A DNA stretch of 32,000 nucleotides from Paracoccus suum. Lineage in GTDB: Bacteria > Pseudomonadota > Alphaproteobacteria > Rhodobacterales > Rhodobacteraceae. Under the pieces are notes generated by a model. It ran no database searches. It saw only the letters and a list, made by a program, of their open reading frames with translations, and was not told where the DNA came from. A program made the position numbers and the translations under genes. Positions 1 through 13,801 of this stretch are shown here, in pieces (within the stretch, counting starts at the first letter, position 1; the number at the start of each line of letters is the position of its first letter). The stretch is from assembly GCF_003324675.1 (NCBI RefSeq), contig NZ_CP030918.1, positions 2,640,001 through 2,672,000 of the forward strand. The letters are read 5' to 3'.

Positions 1-439
1 GTCCGCGGAAATCGTCCCAGTTGGCTTTGATGATCTCGCCCAGCTCCCCGAAGGTTGTATAATCAATCCTTCGAACCGAGCGAGCTTCCAGCCCCTCACT
101 GTCCTCGTTTTCCTTGTTCTTCTTGACGTTATCACGAACGGCTTGAGGCACCTTATCACCCCACCAGTTAGGCCCATGAAGTTCCTCCATGGTATTCGCG
201 ATTAACTCCCTGATATCATTCTCAAGAGAATAGAACATCCGGTAGAACTCGCCCATCCGATGGGCGTCAGATCTGATCCTCTTATCAATTTGATCCAAGT
301 GCCGGTCAATGAGTGCGTCAGTATAAAGCTCGAGATCAGTCCGGCCGGTGGAAGCATTACTTGAAGGCAGAGCCAATCGTAAATCGCGGTACGTAAGCGC
401 GCCTTTTAGGCAAAATAATTCTACCCTCTCTGAACTCAT
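1..439 (-). CDS. Partial CDS (N-terminal 146 codons; 3' end beyond the window): HEPN-like protein with a Swt1-type motif layout
   Basis: Absent from the ORF track because it is open at the window edge. Manual reverse-complement translation from ATG 437-439 gives MSSERVELFCLKGALTYRDLRLALPSSNASTGRTDLELYTDALIDRHLDQIDKRIRSDAHRMGEFYRMFYSLENDIRELIANTMEELHGPNWWGDKVPQAVRDNVKKNKENEDSEGLEARSVRRIDYTTFGELGEIIKANWDDFRG, with no stop down to position 1. The layout LEN-x-IR-x-LI ... NWW ... IDY-x-x-FG-x-L-x-x-II-x-x-NW-x-x-F is what I recall for Swt1-like HEPN domains. The catalytic Rx4-6H motif would lie beyond the edge. The start overlaps the upstream stop (TGATG). Confidence 0.6.
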   Translation of the reverse strand, partial: MSSERVELFCLKGALTYRDLRLALPSSNASTGRTDLELYTDALIDRHLDQIDKRIRSDAHRMGEFYRMFYSLENDIRELIANTMEELHGPNWWGDKVPQAVRDNVKKNKENEDSEGLEARSVRRIDYTTFGELGEIIKANWDDFRG

Positions 440-1203
440 CATTCTAAGAGATTTCTTTTGAGGCTTCGGAATATCGCGTCGAAGGTACGTTCATCCTGGC
501 TCTCAGGAAGCACAATGTTGAATTGGTATGACAACCCGAACGTCGCCGCGGCGGGGCCTGGATCCGACTTCGGTGGAAGCGGCGGGACCTTTTCCACCTC
601 GTCGTCCCTTCTGGCTTGATTCCCGTCCGAAATAAAGTTGGCCGGTATGTATGCTTTTATATTGTTAAAAGTGTTAATTATGTGTCGAAGTACCGGATCT
701 TTTTTGGTCAAACCGGTGATTTCTACTACGATGTCTTGAAGCTGGACGTCGGTTGCCTTATGTGCGACTTCATTCTTCCTAAAAATCTCAGGAAATGCAT
801 TTTTTAATCCACCTAGCGCTGCCGCAGCACGCCCGGTCTCGGTCTTAAATTTTGAGTAAAGGTCCGTTGGCGAGCCATCGCTGTTAAGAAAGCCCATCTT
901 TTTGAGTATGGGCGGCACAGAGCGGGCGCCCCCTCCCGACAATCCGAATACTGTCTCCATGTAGACGTTGCTCAGGCGGTTGGGGCGTTCGGCGGCAATT
1001 ACCGCGTCGAGGACACCCTTAATCAGACCCGGAGAAGCGGTGTAAGGAAGATTCCCCTTAATCTCCCTAGCAGCCTGCTTCTCGGAAGCGACGGTCGTTT
1101 TCGCAGCCTCGCTCTCAGCTTCTTGGACCGCCCCTCCAGCGGTGCCCGGTTCGCCTTCTTGTTCCCCTTCCCCCTCTCCAGTACCCGTGACCGGCTCTTT
1201 CAT
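439..1203 (-). CDS. DUF5343-like hypothetical protein (probable winged-helix-like core) with an acidic Gly/Glu-rich N-terminal tail
   Basis: 254-aa ORF. The core LPYTASPGLIKGVLDAVIAAERPNRLSNVYMETVFGLSGGGARSVPPILKKMGFLNSDGSPTDLYSKF...VVEITGL matches my memory of the DUF5343 family (function unknown). The N-terminus TGTGEGEGEQEGEPGTAGG is low complexity. ATG 1201-1203 is the only in-frame ATG/GTG/TTG before codon 82. The stop TGA 439-441 overlaps the next ATG. Confidence 0.7.
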   Translation of the reverse strand: MKEPVTGTGEGEGEQEGEPGTAGGAVQEAESEAAKTTVASEKQAAREIKGNLPYTASPGLIKGVLDAVIAAERPNRLSNVYMETVFGLSGGGARSVPPILKKMGFLNSDGSPTDLYSKFKTETGRAAAALGGLKNAFPEIFRKNEVAHKATDVQLQDIVVEITGLTKKDPVLRHIINTFNNIKAYIPANFISDGNQARRDDEVEKVPPLPPKSDPGPAAATFGLSYQFNIVLPESQDERTFDAIFRSLKRNLLE

Positions 1204-1206
1204 CCC

Positions 1207-3006
1207 TCACCCATCCATCTTCAACGCCGAAATAAACGCCGACTGCGGAATCTCCACCTTCCCGAACTGGCGCATCTTCTTCTTACCCGCCTTCTGCTTT
1301 TCCAGGAGCTTTTTCTTTCTCGTGGCGTCCCCGCCGTAACACTTGGCCGTCACGTCCTTGCGCATCGCAGACAGGGTCTCGCGCGCGATTACCCGCCCGC
1401 CGATGGCCGCCTGGATCGGGATCTTGAACATGTGCCGGGGGATCAGGTCCTTCAGCTTTTCGACCATCGCCCGGCCGCGGGCGTCGGCGCGGTCGCGGTG
1501 GACCATGATCGACAGCGCGTCCACCGGCTCGTCATTCACCAGGATCGACATCTTCACGAGGTTGTCCTCGCGGTATTCGCTGATCTGGTAGTCGAACGAG
1601 GCATAACCCTTGGTCACCGATTTCAGCCGGTCGTAGAAATCGAACACGACCTCGGCCAGCGGCAGGTCATAGACCACCATCGCCCGGCTGCCGGCATAGG
1701 TCAGGTCCAGCTGGATGCCGCGGCGGTCCTGGCACAGCTTCAGCACGTCGCCCAGGTAGTCGTCGGGCACCATGATCGTGGCCTTGATCCGCGGCTCGTC
1801 GATATGGTCGATCTGCATCGGGTCGGGCATGTCGGCGGGGTTGTGCAACTCGCGCACCTCGCCATCCTTCATGTGCAGGCGGAACACCACCGACGGCGCG
1901 GTGGTGATCAGGTCGAGGTCATATTCCCGCTCGAGCCGGTCGCGGATCACCTCGAGGTGCAGCAGCCCCAGGAAGCCGCAGCGAAAGCCAAAGCCGAGGG
2001 CGGCCGATGTCTCCATCTCGGAGCTGAAGCTGGCGTCGTTCAGGGCCAGCTTCTCGATCGCCTCGCGCAGCGCGTCGAAGTCGTTGGCGTCAACCGGAAA
2101 GAGGCCGCAGAACACGACGGGCTGCGCGGGTTTGAAGCCGGGCAGCGGGGCGTCGGTGCCCTTGCGCTCATGCGTGATGGTATCGCCGACGCGGGTGTCG
2201 CGGACCTGCTTGATCGAGGCGGTAAAGACGCCCATCTCGCCGGGGGCGAGTTCGGCGATGTCCTTCATGGCCGGGGTCAGCACCGCCAGCTTGTCGATGC
2301 CGTAGACCGCGCCGGTCTGCATCATGCGCACCCGGTCGCCCTTGCGGATCACGCCATCCATGACGCGGATCATGACGACAACGCCGAGGTAGGCATCGTA
2401 CCAGCTGTCGACCAGCATTGCCTTCAGCGGCGCGTCCCGCTCGCCCTTGGGGGCCGGCAGGCGGGTGACGATCGCCTCCAGCACGTCGGGAATGCCGAGG
2501 CCGGTCTTTGCGCTGATCGGGATCGCGTCGCTGGCGTCGATGCCAATGACATCCTCGATCTGTTCCTTGACGCGATCGGGCTCTGCCGCGGGCAGGTCGA
2601 TCTTGTTCAGCACCGGCACGATCTCGTGCCCGGCGTCGATGGCCTGGTAGACATTAGCGAGGGTCTGCGCCTCGACCCCCTGGGTCGCGTCGACCACCAG
2701 CAGAGATCCCTCGACCGCGCGCATGCTGCGGCTGACCTCATAGGCAAAGTCGACGTGGCCGGGGGTGTCGATCAGGTTCAGGATATAGGTCTGCCCGTCG
2801 CGCGCCGGATAGGTGATGCGCACGGTGTTGGCCTTGATGGTGATACCGCGCTCGCGCTCGATATCCATACTGTCCAGCATCTGCTCTTTCATGTCGCGGT
2901 CGGCGACAGTCCCGGTCGACTGGATCAGCCGGTCGGCGAGCGTGGATTTGCCGTGGTCGATATGGGCCACGATCGAGAAATTGCGGATCAGCGAGATGTC
3001 GGTCAT
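1207..3006 (-). CDS. lepA: Elongation factor 4 (translational GTPase LepA)
   Basis: ORF 1207..3378 trimmed to ATG 3004-3006, giving [27 protein letters not shown] (G1 AHIDHGKST). It also has DTPGHVDF (G3), NKIDL (G4) and the LepA-type C-terminal tail [28 protein letters not shown]. The 599-aa length is typical. Confidence 0.97.
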
Positions 3007-3615: not shown

Positions 3616-3882
3616 TTAGACGCCTTCAACGGGCGAGCCGTCCTTTTCCTGCATCAGGATCTTGGCCTCGGAGGCATTGGCCGAGAGCCAGACCTTGCCG
3701 TTGTCGACCGATCCGACATCGGCCAGCGGAACGTAGTGATGATGGTCGCTGACGACCCCGTGCTTCTCATCGTTCTTCGTCAGCTTCAGCCGGTTGCCGT
3801 CCATGTGATCCACAATGCCGACATGCACGCCATCGGCGCCGACCACTTCCATATGTTCCTTGATCTCGCTGGCATCGATCAT
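3616..3882 (-). CDS. DUF2171-like small protein
   Basis: 88 aa: MIDASEIKEHMEVVGADGVHVGIVDHMDGNRLKLTKNDEKHGVVSDHHHYVPLADVGSVDNGKVWL. This fits the pattern I recall for DUF2171. A GGAGG Shine-Dalgarno lies about 6 nt upstream of ATG 3880-3882. Confidence 0.75.
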   Translation of the reverse strand: MIDASEIKEHMEVVGADGVHVGIVDHMDGNRLKLTKNDEKHGVVSDHHHYVPLADVGSVDNGKVWLSANASEAKILMQEKDGSPVEGV

Positions 3883-10437: not shown

Positions 10438-10527
10438 GGGGGCGTGGCAGAGCGGTTGATTGCACCGGTCTTGAAAACCGACGTGGGGGAAACTCCACCG
10501 TGGGTTCGAATCCCACCGCCCCCGCCA
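10438..10527 (+). tRNA. tRNA-Ser (anticodon UGA), class II with a long variable arm and encoded CCA
   Basis: Hand fold: acceptor GGGGGCG/CGCCCCC; D arm GCA-GAGCGGTTGAT-TGC; anticodon arm CCGGT-CT-TGA-AA-ACCGA (one C:A mismatch); variable arm GTGGGG-GAAA-CTCCAC; T arm GTGGG-TTCGAAT-CCCAC; discriminator G + CCA. Near-identical layout to E. coli tRNA-Ser(UGA). Confidence 0.95.
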
Positions 10528-10554
10528 CCGTTACCAAGGCGTTCTTGGACCGGA

Positions 10555-11574
10555 CTAGGCTTCGACGAGGTGCCGGCACAGGTTCTCGATCGCCTTGTGT
10601 CGAACTTTCGGCACACGCGCGTTCAGCACGTCTTCCGCAAGCTCAGACTCGCGCATCTGCAGGAGGTTCAGCGCCAAGCTAAGGGTTTTGACATTGGCGA
10701 TGTCCTCAAGAGATCGGGCGCAGTATTGCCGTGCCAAGGGTGGCCGGCCCGCGCGTTTTGCGAGCATCGCCATCAGGTACAGGCTCTTCCAGTCCGGCAG
10801 GCCGTTAGCCTTCTCTCGCTGGGCAGCGAGAGCAAGGGCCTTCGCCGGGTCGGTGTCCTTCCACCGCCGCCACACAAGATTGTAAAAGTAGTTGGACGTA
10901 GGCACCTTCGTTGACTGGCGCACCAGCCTGCGGGCGGCACCGAGGTCAACCTGAGGCGCCAGCAACCCTTCAAGGAAGGTAGACAGCAGCCCGGCGGTCT
11001 TGAGTTGTTGAAGGGCACCATGGCCGGCCAGAGGGGCCTTGATCGCGACCGTGCCCGGAACTTGCAATGCCCGCTTCGCCTGCGCGGCGTCCAAGGTGTC
11101 CAGCGGGTCAAATATTACCAGCTTCTCTATGCCTTCGCTGATGGAGTGCGGATCGTCTCTCGAGAGTAGGGCAACCTTCTCGGCTTCTGCTGGCCACCGC
11201 GTCTCTGTCGGCATCACCGAACGATCGATCGAGTACTGCGGCGCCACAGCGATGGCGCGCTCTGCCCCAAAAAAGCCGGCCAGACGAAGCGCAGCATGCC
11301 CCCCCATGCTGGAGCCATACGTGATCACCCGATTGTAGCCGTGGTTCTCGTAGCCGATCTTGCGACGAAGCATCTCGAACTCTCTGGTATGGTACCACTC
11401 ATTCCGGCGGGCCCGGATCGCAAGGTACGAGATGCCGCGCGAGGCGAGAAAACTTGTCGCGAAGGGCCGCGAGGGTGGTCGTTTGGCGAAATTCGAGAAC
11501 GTAACAATCAGCTGATCGCCACCAAGAGGCCGGTACTCGCCAAGGAGGTCTTCCCCTTCGAATTCAGTTGCCAT
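10555..11574 (-). CDS. Alpha/beta-hydrolase fold protein with a C-terminal helical (TPR-like) region
   Basis: 339 aa. Nucleophile elbow VITYGSSMGGHAAL (G-x-S-x-G). The C-terminal third is helical and repeat-like (DPAKALALAAQREKANGLPDWKSLYLMAMLAKRAGRPPLARQYCARSLE). ATG 11572-11574, stop TAG 10555-10557. Confidence 0.7.
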   Translation of the reverse strand: MATEFEGEDLLGEYRPLGGDQLIVTFSNFAKRPPSRPFATSFLASRGISYLAIRARRNEWYHTREFEMLRRKIGYENHGYNRVITYGSSMGGHAALRLAGFFGAERAIAVAPQYSIDRSVMPTETRWPAEAEKVALLSRDDPHSISEGIEKLVIFDPLDTLDAAQAKRALQVPGTVAIKAPLAGHGALQQLKTAGLLSTFLEGLLAPQVDLGAARRLVRQSTKVPTSNYFYNLVWRRWKDTDPAKALALAAQREKANGLPDWKSLYLMAMLAKRAGRPPLARQYCARSLEDIANVKTLSLALNLLQMRESELAEDVLNARVPKVRHKAIENLCRHLVEA

Positions 11575-11702
11575 GGTATTCTAGCTTTCGTCAAACAATG
11601 GTAGGCGAACCCATCTAGCTGCGTGGCTGTCCCCTTGTCCACTCAACTTATGAGGGTGTAGACCGCGCGCTCGTACCCTCTTGGCCTTCTGGAGCCCGCC
11701 CA

Positions 11703-12383
11703 ATGGTTATGATCAGCTACCCCCACAAATTCGTGTTTTTAAAGACACATAAGACTGGGGGTACCTCCTTTGAGATGCTGCTCGAGCCGTGGTGCACTCC
11801 ACCCGGCCACGTTGTAAGAGAGCGGGTACCAGAGATGGTGACGGACTATGGGATCGTGGGCGCTCGTCTTAACCGCGGCCCCCAAAAACCCTACTGGCGA
11901 AACCACGCCTCAGCCAAACAGGTCGTCGCTCACCTGGGAGAGGCCTTCTGGGACGAGTACAAGCGGATCATCTCCGTCCGCAATCCCTACCGGCGCGCGA
12001 TTTCGCAGTTTTACTGGCAAACGACATGGAAGAAATTGACCCTTCCCGACAGCGTGGACGAGCAGCGGGTTATGTTCTCGGACTTCGTGCTGAGCGACAG
12101 TTTCAAATCGGACTACTACATCACCCATGCCGATGGCCGTTATGTGGCCACGCACATGTTCCGCTTGGAACACAGGGACGAAGATATAATCAAGGTCGGC
12201 GAAGCTTTAGGCATCCCCTTGCGACCGGAAGACTTACCGAAAACCAAGGAAAACTCAGACCGCAAGCCGGACGCAGATTTCCGGACCTTCTTTTCAAAGA
12301 AGGAAGAGGATGCGGTGCGCGACAAGCAAGGGTGGGTCTTCGAGCACTGCGGCTACGACGAGTCTTCCGCCGCGGCCTTCTGA
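11703..12383 (+). CDS. Sulfotransferase family protein (Sulfotransfer_2-like)
   Basis: 5'-phosphosulfate-binding loop FLKTHKTGGTSF near the N-terminus, the candidate catalytic His in RNHASAKQV, and the 3'-phosphate-binding motif SVRNPYRRAISQFYW. Confidence 0.8.
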   Translation: MVMISYPHKFVFLKTHKTGGTSFEMLLEPWCTPPGHVVRERVPEMVTDYGIVGARLNRGPQKPYWRNHASAKQVVAHLGEAFWDEYKRIISVRNPYRRAISQFYWQTTWKKLTLPDSVDEQRVMFSDFVLSDSFKSDYYITHADGRYVATHMFRLEHRDEDIIKVGEALGIPLRPEDLPKTKENSDRKPDADFRTFFSKKEEDAVRDKQGWVFEHCGYDESSAAAF

Positions 12384-12403
12384 AGACCTGTTATCCGCGA
12401 CCT

Positions 12404-12434
12404 TCGTGGCGCTGCCGGATCCCGGCGGAGCCAC
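12404..12434. terminator. Strong stem-loop between convergent genes (possible bidirectional terminator; no U-tract)
   Basis: cgtggcgctgccgg-atc-ccggcggagccacg forms a 14-position stem with one mismatch, one G:U and a 3-nt loop. It lies between stop 12383 (+) and stop 12450 (-). Confidence 0.35.
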
Positions 12435-12449
12435 GACGGCCCCGGAACC

Positions 12450-13340
12450 CTAGAGGAAGTTAACGCCGCCCCAGCGAGCTTTGTAAGACTCTAGGTCTGG
12501 GAGATATCTCGCGTTAATTCTCTGCCGCTCATTCTCCGGGTAGGGCGAGCCTGGCGCGTAGCCAGAGGCAACAGCATATTTCGCGTTGATCATCTCGGTC
12601 AGGGGCAGGCAGTTTGTCGGGCCAATCGCAGGCGCAAGGTCCGCGAGCACGTCCAGGGTCTTTTGCGACAGCGAGGGGCGCGTGGCCTCAGGCGCGTATT
12701 CGGCGACAAGACGCGGGCCCAGGTCAGTCCCGGTAAGTCGGTTGACGAGGTCCGGCAGCAGGTCTCTGAACGAGGCGAAGTCCCAGATCGTGACGGCACT
12801 TTCTCCGAAGACATCAACCATCGGCTCGATCACCGAACTCCAGCTCCAAGCCATCGGATCGAAGGCGCCGGCATACTCCTCAGCGGGGATAAAACCCTGG
12901 TTGCGGACAATTTCCGAGTACATCGAAGAAAAGAAATCGCCATATCGGCGCACCGAGAAATACACCTCTATCTGGCGGTCGCCGAACACTTCCTTCAGCG
13001 TCTCCAGCCGCTGCCGGGTATTTGCATAGAATCCGCCGTCCTTGAGAACTTGTCGCGGCGTGCCGATGATGTTTTCGTCGGTGAGGATCCAGTCATTCGC
13101 CTCTGGCATCACCCTTCGCAGAGCCGTCCTCGTATCCGGGCGAGGACCACGCTCAGGCTTTTTTACCTGCTGCCTGACCGCAGCAAAGTACATTTCCAGC
13201 CAATCCGGTCGCAGCTGGCGCGGGGCGGTGACAGAGGTTCCCGCCGCCTCCAGCAGGTCCGCATTCTTTATCAAGATGCCCTGGAGATGGGTCGTGGCAG
13301 TTTTATGCGCCCCAAGGTAAAGCTTGATCGTGGATGTCAT
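12450..13340 (-). CDS. Divergent sulfotransferase-fold (P-loop-like) hypothetical protein
   Basis: Trimmed to ATG 13338-13340 (GGAG about 9 nt upstream): MTSTIKLYLGAHKTATTHLQGIL... The N-terminal loop G-x-HKTATT resembles a PAPS 5'-phosphosulfate loop, and FSVRRYGDFFSSMYSE resembles the R...S 3'-phosphate motif. The assignment rests on motif resemblance only. Confidence 0.6.
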   Translation of the reverse strand: MTSTIKLYLGAHKTATTHLQGILIKNADLLEAAGTSVTAPRQLRPDWLEMYFAAVRQQVKKPERGPRPDTRTALRRVMPEANDWILTDENIIGTPRQVLKDGGFYANTRQRLETLKEVFGDRQIEVYFSVRRYGDFFSSMYSEIVRNQGFIPAEEYAGAFDPMAWSWSSVIEPMVDVFGESAVTIWDFASFRDLLPDLVNRLTGTDLGPRLVAEYAPEATRPSLSQKTLDVLADLAPAIGPTNCLPLTEMINAKYAVASGYAPGSPYPENERQRINARYLPDLESYKARWGGVNFL

Positions 13341-13801
13341 GGTTGCTCCGACACTTAACTGGGACGCTGCGCGCCCCATAACTTACCCCCTGCAGAGGAG
13401 CCAGTTCAAAACCGGCAAATCCGGCCGAAGCGCGCCAGGTTGCCTGCCGTCCATGAAAGGCGCTTACTTCGCGGGACGGGGCCGGACTGACAGTGCGCGT
13501 GGGCTAAGATGGCTCTCGCGTTCAACTCGGATTGGACCGTCTGCCGCGCTGCCCAACTTCGCCACAGAGCGGGACTCATTGGCTCGGACCCTGCCGGGCA
13601 GTCCGCAGGCGAGCGTCGGCGGCGCCCGTCGCGACGACGGCCCCAGCCCCTAGCGAGAAAATGGACCAACGTCCGTGACGTCCAGTGCCCACGACGGGCG
13701 GCCCGCGGATCGGATTCGCTCTACCGCGAGTTGATGGCCAGTCGCCACTCATTCCGTTAAATTGGCGCCAGCCCCACCACATTCCGCGCTGCGAGGAAGC
13801 A

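Follow-up and report, generated by a model that had tools for sequence, protein, structure and literature searches.

A DUF5343 and HEPN_Swt1 gene pair beside lepA in Paracoccus suum matches the catalogued candidate PDC-M34 and may act as a toxin-antitoxin-like conflict module

What is the role of two overlapping genes that lie in an AT-rich patch at the edge of a 32,000-nucleotide stretch of the Paracoccus suum genome (contig NZ_CP030918.1, positions 2,640,001 to 2,672,000; hereafter the window, in whose own numbering all coordinates are given)? The upstream gene, A, encodes a DUF5343 protein and the downstream gene, B, a Swt1-type HEPN protein that is cut by the window edge. An earlier note, made from the letters of the sequence, proposed them as an undescribed toxin-antitoxin or anti-phage module. 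Profile matches now indicate that the pair is a copy of an already catalogued candidate, PDC-M34, and the function favoured here, with middling confidence, is that of a PDC-M34-type two-gene conflict module of toxin-antitoxin-like character in which A silences B. The layout of the locus is as follows.

439 to 1203, minus strand: gene A, an open reading frame (ORF) call of 254 amino acids with its ATG start at 1203 and its TGA stop at 441-439.
1 to 442, minus strand: gene B, codons 1-147 of 197 as translated, running off the window at position 1.
439 to 442, minus strand: overlap of the stop of A with the start of B, read in the sequence as ATGA.
1204 to 1209, minus strand: lepA-A junction, consisting of the lepA stop TGA at 1209-1207 and one codon, GGG, after which the ATG of A follows.
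1 to 1100, no strand: islet of low guanine-plus-cytosine (GC) content coinciding with genes A and B, GC about 0.50 against about 0.66 in the flanks.

The frame of gene B opens with an ATG at 442-440, followed by a second in-frame ATG at 439-437, and stays open to position 1, giving 147 or 146 codons and placing about 50 codons of the gene outside the window. The overlapping stop and start claimed by the earlier note are real and can be read in either of two forms, as ATGA (442-439), which is the form of the orthologues, or as TGATG (441-437), which is the form given in that note. Its low-GC segment is equally evident, with GC at 0.49-0.51 over positions 1-1000 and at 0.57-0.74, mostly 0.62-0.70, over the rest of the window.

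Searched against PADLOC-DB, protein A matches PDC-M34A (PDLC04589) with E 7.7e-34 over profile positions 6-207 of 208, and the 147 visible residues of B match PDC-M34B (PDLC04592) with E 4.2e-28 over positions 1-142 of 192. Both proteins match the hidden Markov model sets of PDC-M34, and order, orientation and direct adjacency are identical, which by profile evidence makes the two the same system. PDC-M34 is one of 145 predicted candidates nominated by "guilt-by-embedding" in Hma, BREX, DISARM and type I restriction-modification (RM) loci, and the supplement to that study marks cassette CAS_00130 (FAM_01148>>FAM_01657, count 97) "Assign as candidate PDC-M34" (Payne et al., 2024, bioRxiv 10.1101/2024.01.29.577857). 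A search of a literature library for PDC-M34 and DUF5343 found no papers. The earlier statement that no system had been described from this pair thus falls on the catalogue entry and stands as far as function and mechanism are concerned. One difference separates the copies: those from which PDC-M34 was nominated lie inside defence loci, whereas the P. suum pair, like its relatives in Alphaproteobacteria and Actinobacteria, forms a stand-alone islet beside housekeeping genes.

The visible part of B scores 27.3 bits against Pfam HEPN_Swt1 (PF18731), just under the cut-off of 27.5 because the window truncates it; the domain starts near residue 68 (window position about 241) and only profile positions 1-68 of 115 fall in the window. 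The missing C-terminus was taken from NCBI protein P0130 (DRW48_12900), the product of the same P. suum gene, which covers the whole profile (positions 1-115 of 115) at 53.5 bits and so bears out the Swt1-type HEPN assignment first made from the fragment. The Rx4-6H motif that had been predicted for the part beyond the edge is present as well, since the C-terminus of P0130, ...LFSNCSIPRFEKVIKRLNVARGPIAHSGYIVPEEAVRLKLTIRDWYTMIG, contains RGPIAH (Rx4H) about 20 codons past the window. Across orthologues the motif is intact, with R[GA][PT]IAH in 46 of 46 full-length B sequences and with R168 and H173 invariant in alignment A2, while distant clades carry the Rx4H variants RNVIMH, RAAIAH and RNPIAH and the motif recurs in all six of the distant pairs described below. 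The public annotation of P0130 begins at an internal methionine, Met63, and at 135 amino acids is 62 codons short. The 62 residues before Met63 and the ATGA overlap are kept in orthologues, and the real B is therefore a protein of 197 amino acids; full-length orthologues measure 189-198.

The structure of B was modelled from an orthologue, P0122 (76% identical; 33 sequences), giving a confident, all-helical model with a predicted local distance difference test score (pLDDT) of 86.7. Its best match in the PDB is the HEPN toxin PbAbiF bound to non-coding RNA (8vz6_A), with probability 0.96, a TM score of 0.44, 146 aligned columns and E 0.46. This match fits the placing of Abi2/Swt1 as one branch of the HEPN domains (Anantharaman et al., 2013, PMC3710099). 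Profile searches of A and of B against PDB sequences returned nothing significant, the best hit being "Retron-Kva2 HEPN" at E 0.55.

Protein A is equally well placed by family. It matches Pfam DUF5343 (PF17278) at 99.5 bits, against a cut-off of 27, with E 2.6e-28 over residues 53-185; the family named in the earlier note is in this way substantiated, and DUF5343 is its sole Pfam match at E <= 1. The protein is 100% identical to the NCBI entry "DUF5343 domain-containing protein [Paracoccus suum]" (P0001), and an AlphaFold model (mean pLDDT 74.6) divides it into four parts.

1069 to 1203, minus strand: residues 1-45, an acidic, low-complexity N-terminal extension, predicted disordered (pLDDT 39-52).
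634 to 1068, minus strand: residues 46-190, the folded DUF5343 core (pLDDT 80-95).
556 to 633, minus strand: residues 191-216, a variable linker, predicted disordered (pLDDT 44-58; conservation 0.26).
442 to 555, minus strand: residues 217-254, a C-terminal strand-plus-helix tail (FGLSYQFNIVLPESQDERTFDAIFRSLKRNLLE; conservation 0.63), the proposed B-binding element.

The N-terminal extension is confined to the alphaproteobacterial clade, being absent from actinobacterial and other clades and showing no cross-clade conservation. In the model, the core runs through helices 60-70, 79-84 and 91-103 and a beta hairpin at 106/112, an order that is winged-helix-like, and continues into a helical bundle. 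The earlier winged-helix call is accordingly weakly supported overall, as the modelled topology fits it and Foldseek yields no significant fold match for A in the PDB or BFVD, the best being GntR/MarR-type regulators at E >= 0.78. Across phyla, conservation is highest in the tail, at 0.63; the core reaches 0.51, and the linker, at 0.26, has the lowest value within the ordered part of the alignment. The helix of the tail, residues 238-253, is confidently predicted.

The association of the two genes was followed in a locus scan limited to one genome per species, which provided 53 loci with a relative of A. By tblastn, B lies directly downstream of A in 49 of them. Reading of the ORFs in Cellulomonas (L053) revealed a divergent pair whose B carries RNVIMH; L007 holds a truncated remnant of B beside A, and in L035 the contig ends after 45 codons of B. 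In Rubellimicrobium mesophilum (L003, 8540-8801) the tail of A is cut after LSYQ and the contig ends there; the sequence that follows LSYQ (PTYRTTNWRAYSEALKQRGSLLVWFDPEM...) may represent the start of an insertion-sequence transposase, which it resembles. Distant homologues of A or B led to six further contexts, in Microbacterium, Demequina, Leifsonia, Ruegeria, Marinobacter and Planktophila, and in every one of these a HEPN_Swt1 gene comes after the DUF5343 gene. The two families, whose joint occurrence the earlier note had left to be checked, are therefore found together essentially always. Translational coupling is conserved along with the pairing, a 4-nucleotide overlap being present in 32 of 38 intact pairs. 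The distance matrices of A and B are strongly correlated (r = 0.90, a value reached in 0 of 2000 permutations), and the two proteins have co-evolved. The suggestion that more partner genes might lie to the left was not supported, as no third gene is conserved across the 53 loci and the next commonest neighbour, LepA, appears in 4. On the side of A, the DUF5343 family comprises 1734 clusters at 50% identity (E <= 1e-3), nearly all of 200-250 amino acids and with a common layout.

A mechanism can be proposed from this arrangement. A would be the obligatory protein partner of B, and the two would be produced in fixed proportion from one transcript by way of the ATGA overlap. The C-terminal strand-helix tail of A, held on its flexible linker, would bind B and keep the predicted RNase silent, while the winged-helix-like core may bind nucleic acid for autoregulation or sense a trigger. 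Were A lost, titrated or triggered, for instance by phage infection, B would cleave cellular RNA, phage RNA or both and growth would stop, the outcome being either abortive infection or addiction. An interaction centred on the tail fits the data because no other part of A is as conserved as the tail. It also fits because of two isolates, Rhizobium sp. CF080 (L046, 7872-8647) and Xanthobacter autotrophicus DSM 431 (L039, 8004-8760), in which A is split by a frameshift into an ORF for the DUF5343 core and a separate tail ORF of 78 or 69 amino acids; the tail ORF survives and still overlaps B by 4 nucleotides.

Among known systems, type II toxin-antitoxin and AbiE-like modules offer the closest parallel in architecture. 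Their antitoxins combine a DNA-binding domain with a toxin-binding C-terminal region, and by analogy the layout of A, a folded core, a disordered linker and a conserved C-terminal helix, is that of many type II antitoxins. The likeness extends to gene order and coupling and, going by the modelled topology, to a core that may be winged helix-turn-helix-like, and the pair is a small bicistronic operon with the partner first and an ATGA overlap; on the other hand, at 254 amino acids A is large for an antitoxin, and plasmids and phages yielded no copy of the pair. The HEPN-MNT system (HepT-MntA) is likewise a two-gene operon with the partner first, an overlapping stop and start and an Rx4H HEPN toxin. 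Its toxin is of the DUF86/HepT type, in contrast to the Swt1 type of B, and its partner is a minimal nucleotidyltransferase (MNT) that AMPylates the toxin (type VII). A partner of this kind was ruled out here, the only Pfam match of A at E <= 1 being DUF5343 and no nucleotidyltransferase family. AbiD/AbiF (Abi_2) resembles B itself, as a small stand-alone Rx4H HEPN RNase whose member PbAbiF is the best structural match. The partner there is a non-coding RNA antitoxin (type III-like), whereas here it is a 254-residue protein, and no sequence similarity between B and AbiF is detectable. A search of positions 1-1700 revealed neither tandem repeats nor an Rfam match below E 0.1; as intergenic space is likewise lacking, an AbiF-type RNA antitoxin was ruled out.

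Several observations weigh against a module in which A restrains a toxic B. Neither structure nor sequence links the core of A significantly to any DNA-binding protein, and the structural match of B to AbiF has a Foldseek E of just 0.46. In addition, disrupted A genes stand beside intact B, through a nonsense codon in L001 and frameshifts in L044, L046, L051 and L052. Such alleles count mildly against the proposal because a constitutively toxic B should not tolerate the loss of A. Taking them as proof that B is harmless was rejected as too weak, as their sources are mostly metagenome-assembled genomes or long-read assemblies and the disruption may leave the tail ORF intact. A further point is P0469, a protein of 457 amino acids in which a DUF5343 core (136.5 bits) is fused to a Ser/Thr protein kinase domain (114.3 bits) carrying VAVK, HRD and DLG motifs, the kinase replacing the C-terminal tail. 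It is one fusion among the top 150 representatives of the DUF5343 family, which suggests that the core can move between proteins as a sensor or adaptor domain. The setting points the same way. Housekeeping genes (LepA, NrdB, GuaA, UvrA, Lhr) make up most of the 97 immediate neighbours, and no defence-island signal was found among these neighbours, PADLOC giving helicase or ABC cross-hits in 2-3; the enrichment beside known defence genes that the earlier note proposed to look for is thus not seen among the 97 neighbours of this clade. Furthermore, A was not found by tblastn in 72,556 plasmids or 50,697 phage records, nor in IMG/VR contigs. Such an absence from plasmids and phages is unusual for classical toxin-antitoxin modules.

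Part of this evidence would suit a different division of labour, in which A is a sensor, adaptor or activator and B is inactive alone, the DUF5343 core sensing a phage or stress ligand or nucleic acid and switching on the tethered RNase; the pair would still serve defence, as a sensor-effector system. The kinase fusion shows that the core can couple to a different effector, B persists intact beside disrupted A in several loci, and the pair is absent from plasmids, where addiction modules thrive. Set against these points, the partner-first order, the overlapping stop and start and the core-linker-tail layout form the classical antitoxin arrangement, the fusion is a single cluster of 1734, and the disrupted alleles may be assembly errors; activation by A is a serious, though less probable, alternative. 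An analogy, again through P0469, may be drawn with the kinase-HEPN (KEN) module of RNase L and Ire1, as DUF5343 is linked to a HEPN RNase in trans and to a fused Ser/Thr kinase. This is a resemblance and not a relationship.

In nearly all loci the GC of the pair is 10-25 points under that of its flanks, and averaged over 47 loci the trough extends from about -150 to +1400 nucleotides relative to the start of A, with a sharp return to baseline. A few copies lie near an integrase, insertion-sequence (IS) element, serine recombinase or prophage-like genes. Neither A nor B has a PHROG match, and a search for shared k-mers revealed no conserved flanking repeats, ends or operators, the recurrent 8-mers coming only from the region of the B stop. 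The pair behaves as an accessory islet that is not carried by the usual vehicles, and its transfer by recombination through conserved flanking core genes is possible. Combining this behaviour with the sensor proposal, DUF5343 may be a hitherto unrecognised modular sensor or adaptor domain that uses its tail to tether a Swt1-type HEPN RNase and to gate it, with a kinase swapped in for the tail among rare relatives. The pair would then represent a new sensor-effector type of immunity, held in chromosome-only, AT-rich islets of 1.5 kb that lack mobility genes and conserved ends and move by recombination via flanking core genes. This broader picture is speculative and is given limited credence.

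The pair might also be a purely selfish chromosomal addiction module, one that maintains itself and secures its neighbourhood through post-segregational killing and plays no part against phages. In favour of such a role, the pair is compact and self-contained, lacks accessory genes, forms a low-GC islet with sharp boundaries that is inserted next to core genes at many unrelated sites, and shows no defence-island enrichment in this clade. The role is considered unlikely. Plasmids and phages, where addiction modules are commonest, are where the pair was not found; Payne et al. chose the cassette for its embedding in RM-I, BREX, DISARM or Hma loci; and HEPN toxin systems repeatedly show abortive-infection activity (Anantharaman et al., 2013, PMC3710099).

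In P. suum itself the upstream neighbour of A is lepA, identified through the Pfam match of the orthologous upstream gene of L001. The lepA stop lies 3 nucleotides before the ATG of A and the two frames are identical. The junction leaves no room for a promoter of A's own, no terminator-like or sigma-70-like site was seen between the genes, and the A-B pair of P. suum probably rides on the lepA transcript. Owing to the shared frame and the single GGG codon, read-through of the lepA stop codon in this junction (1201-1209) would yield a LepA-DUF5343 fusion protein. The order lepA then A is also found in Pseudorhodobacter (L001) and Rubellimicrobium (L003), with gaps of 43-58 nucleotides. Actinobacterial copies adjoin tig-clpPX, dnaG or dnaE. 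As a separate observation, some actinobacterial loci contain an extra gene of 242-263 amino acids, without a Pfam family, directly after the HEPN gene (L055, 9478-10269; L057, 9211-9939); it overlaps the stop of B in Leifsonia and is not present in alphaproteobacterial loci.

Neighbours of this kind raise the question of a housekeeping or regulatory role in RNA processing tied to translation, for instance as a ribosome- or tRNA-directed RNase with an adaptor. The pair is always chromosomal, often lies beside genes of translation, replication and repair (lepA, tig-clpPX, dnaG, rsfS, nrdB, guaA, uvrA) and is apparently co-transcribed with lepA in P. suum. Its position nevertheless varies by genus, no neighbour being common to more than 4 of the 53 loci, its GC lies 10-25 points below that of the host in nearly all loci, L007 is truncated, L003 seems to be interrupted by an insertion sequence, and some other copies occupy integrase-, recombinase- or prophage-like surroundings. 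Varying position, GC deficit and damaged or mobile-context copies together mark accessory, horizontally moving DNA, so that a housekeeping function is very improbable.

Elsewhere in the window, an ORF of 88 amino acids at 3616-3882 (minus strand), between lepA and the next genes, matches DUF2171 at 93.9 bits. The sole tRNA gene, tRNA-Ser(tga) at 10438-10527 (plus strand), is followed by a lower-GC stretch (0.57-0.61). This stretch contains three ORFs without a clear family, at 10555-11574 (minus strand, 339 amino acids), 11703-12383 (plus strand, 226 amino acids, with a sub-threshold sulfotransferase match) and 12450-13379 (minus strand, 309 amino acids), and the interval 10438-13500 may be a small island at the tRNA.

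For the P. suum window as such the yield is modest, comprising a pair that is already catalogued and an annotation of gene B that is 62 codons short. The wider interest lies in the families. If the silencing of B by A is true, a protein-regulated HEPN RNase system of the Swt1/AbiD-F type would join the bacterial immune or addiction modules, and the DUF5343 family, with its 1734 clusters at 50% identity, would gain a function. Unlike the usual mobile toxin-antitoxin and defence genes, the pair is found only on chromosomes, beside core genes and with a GC deficit in nearly every host. At 1.3 kb the module is small; it is also self-contained and occurs widely in Alphaproteobacteria and Actinobacteria, and would therefore be easy to test.

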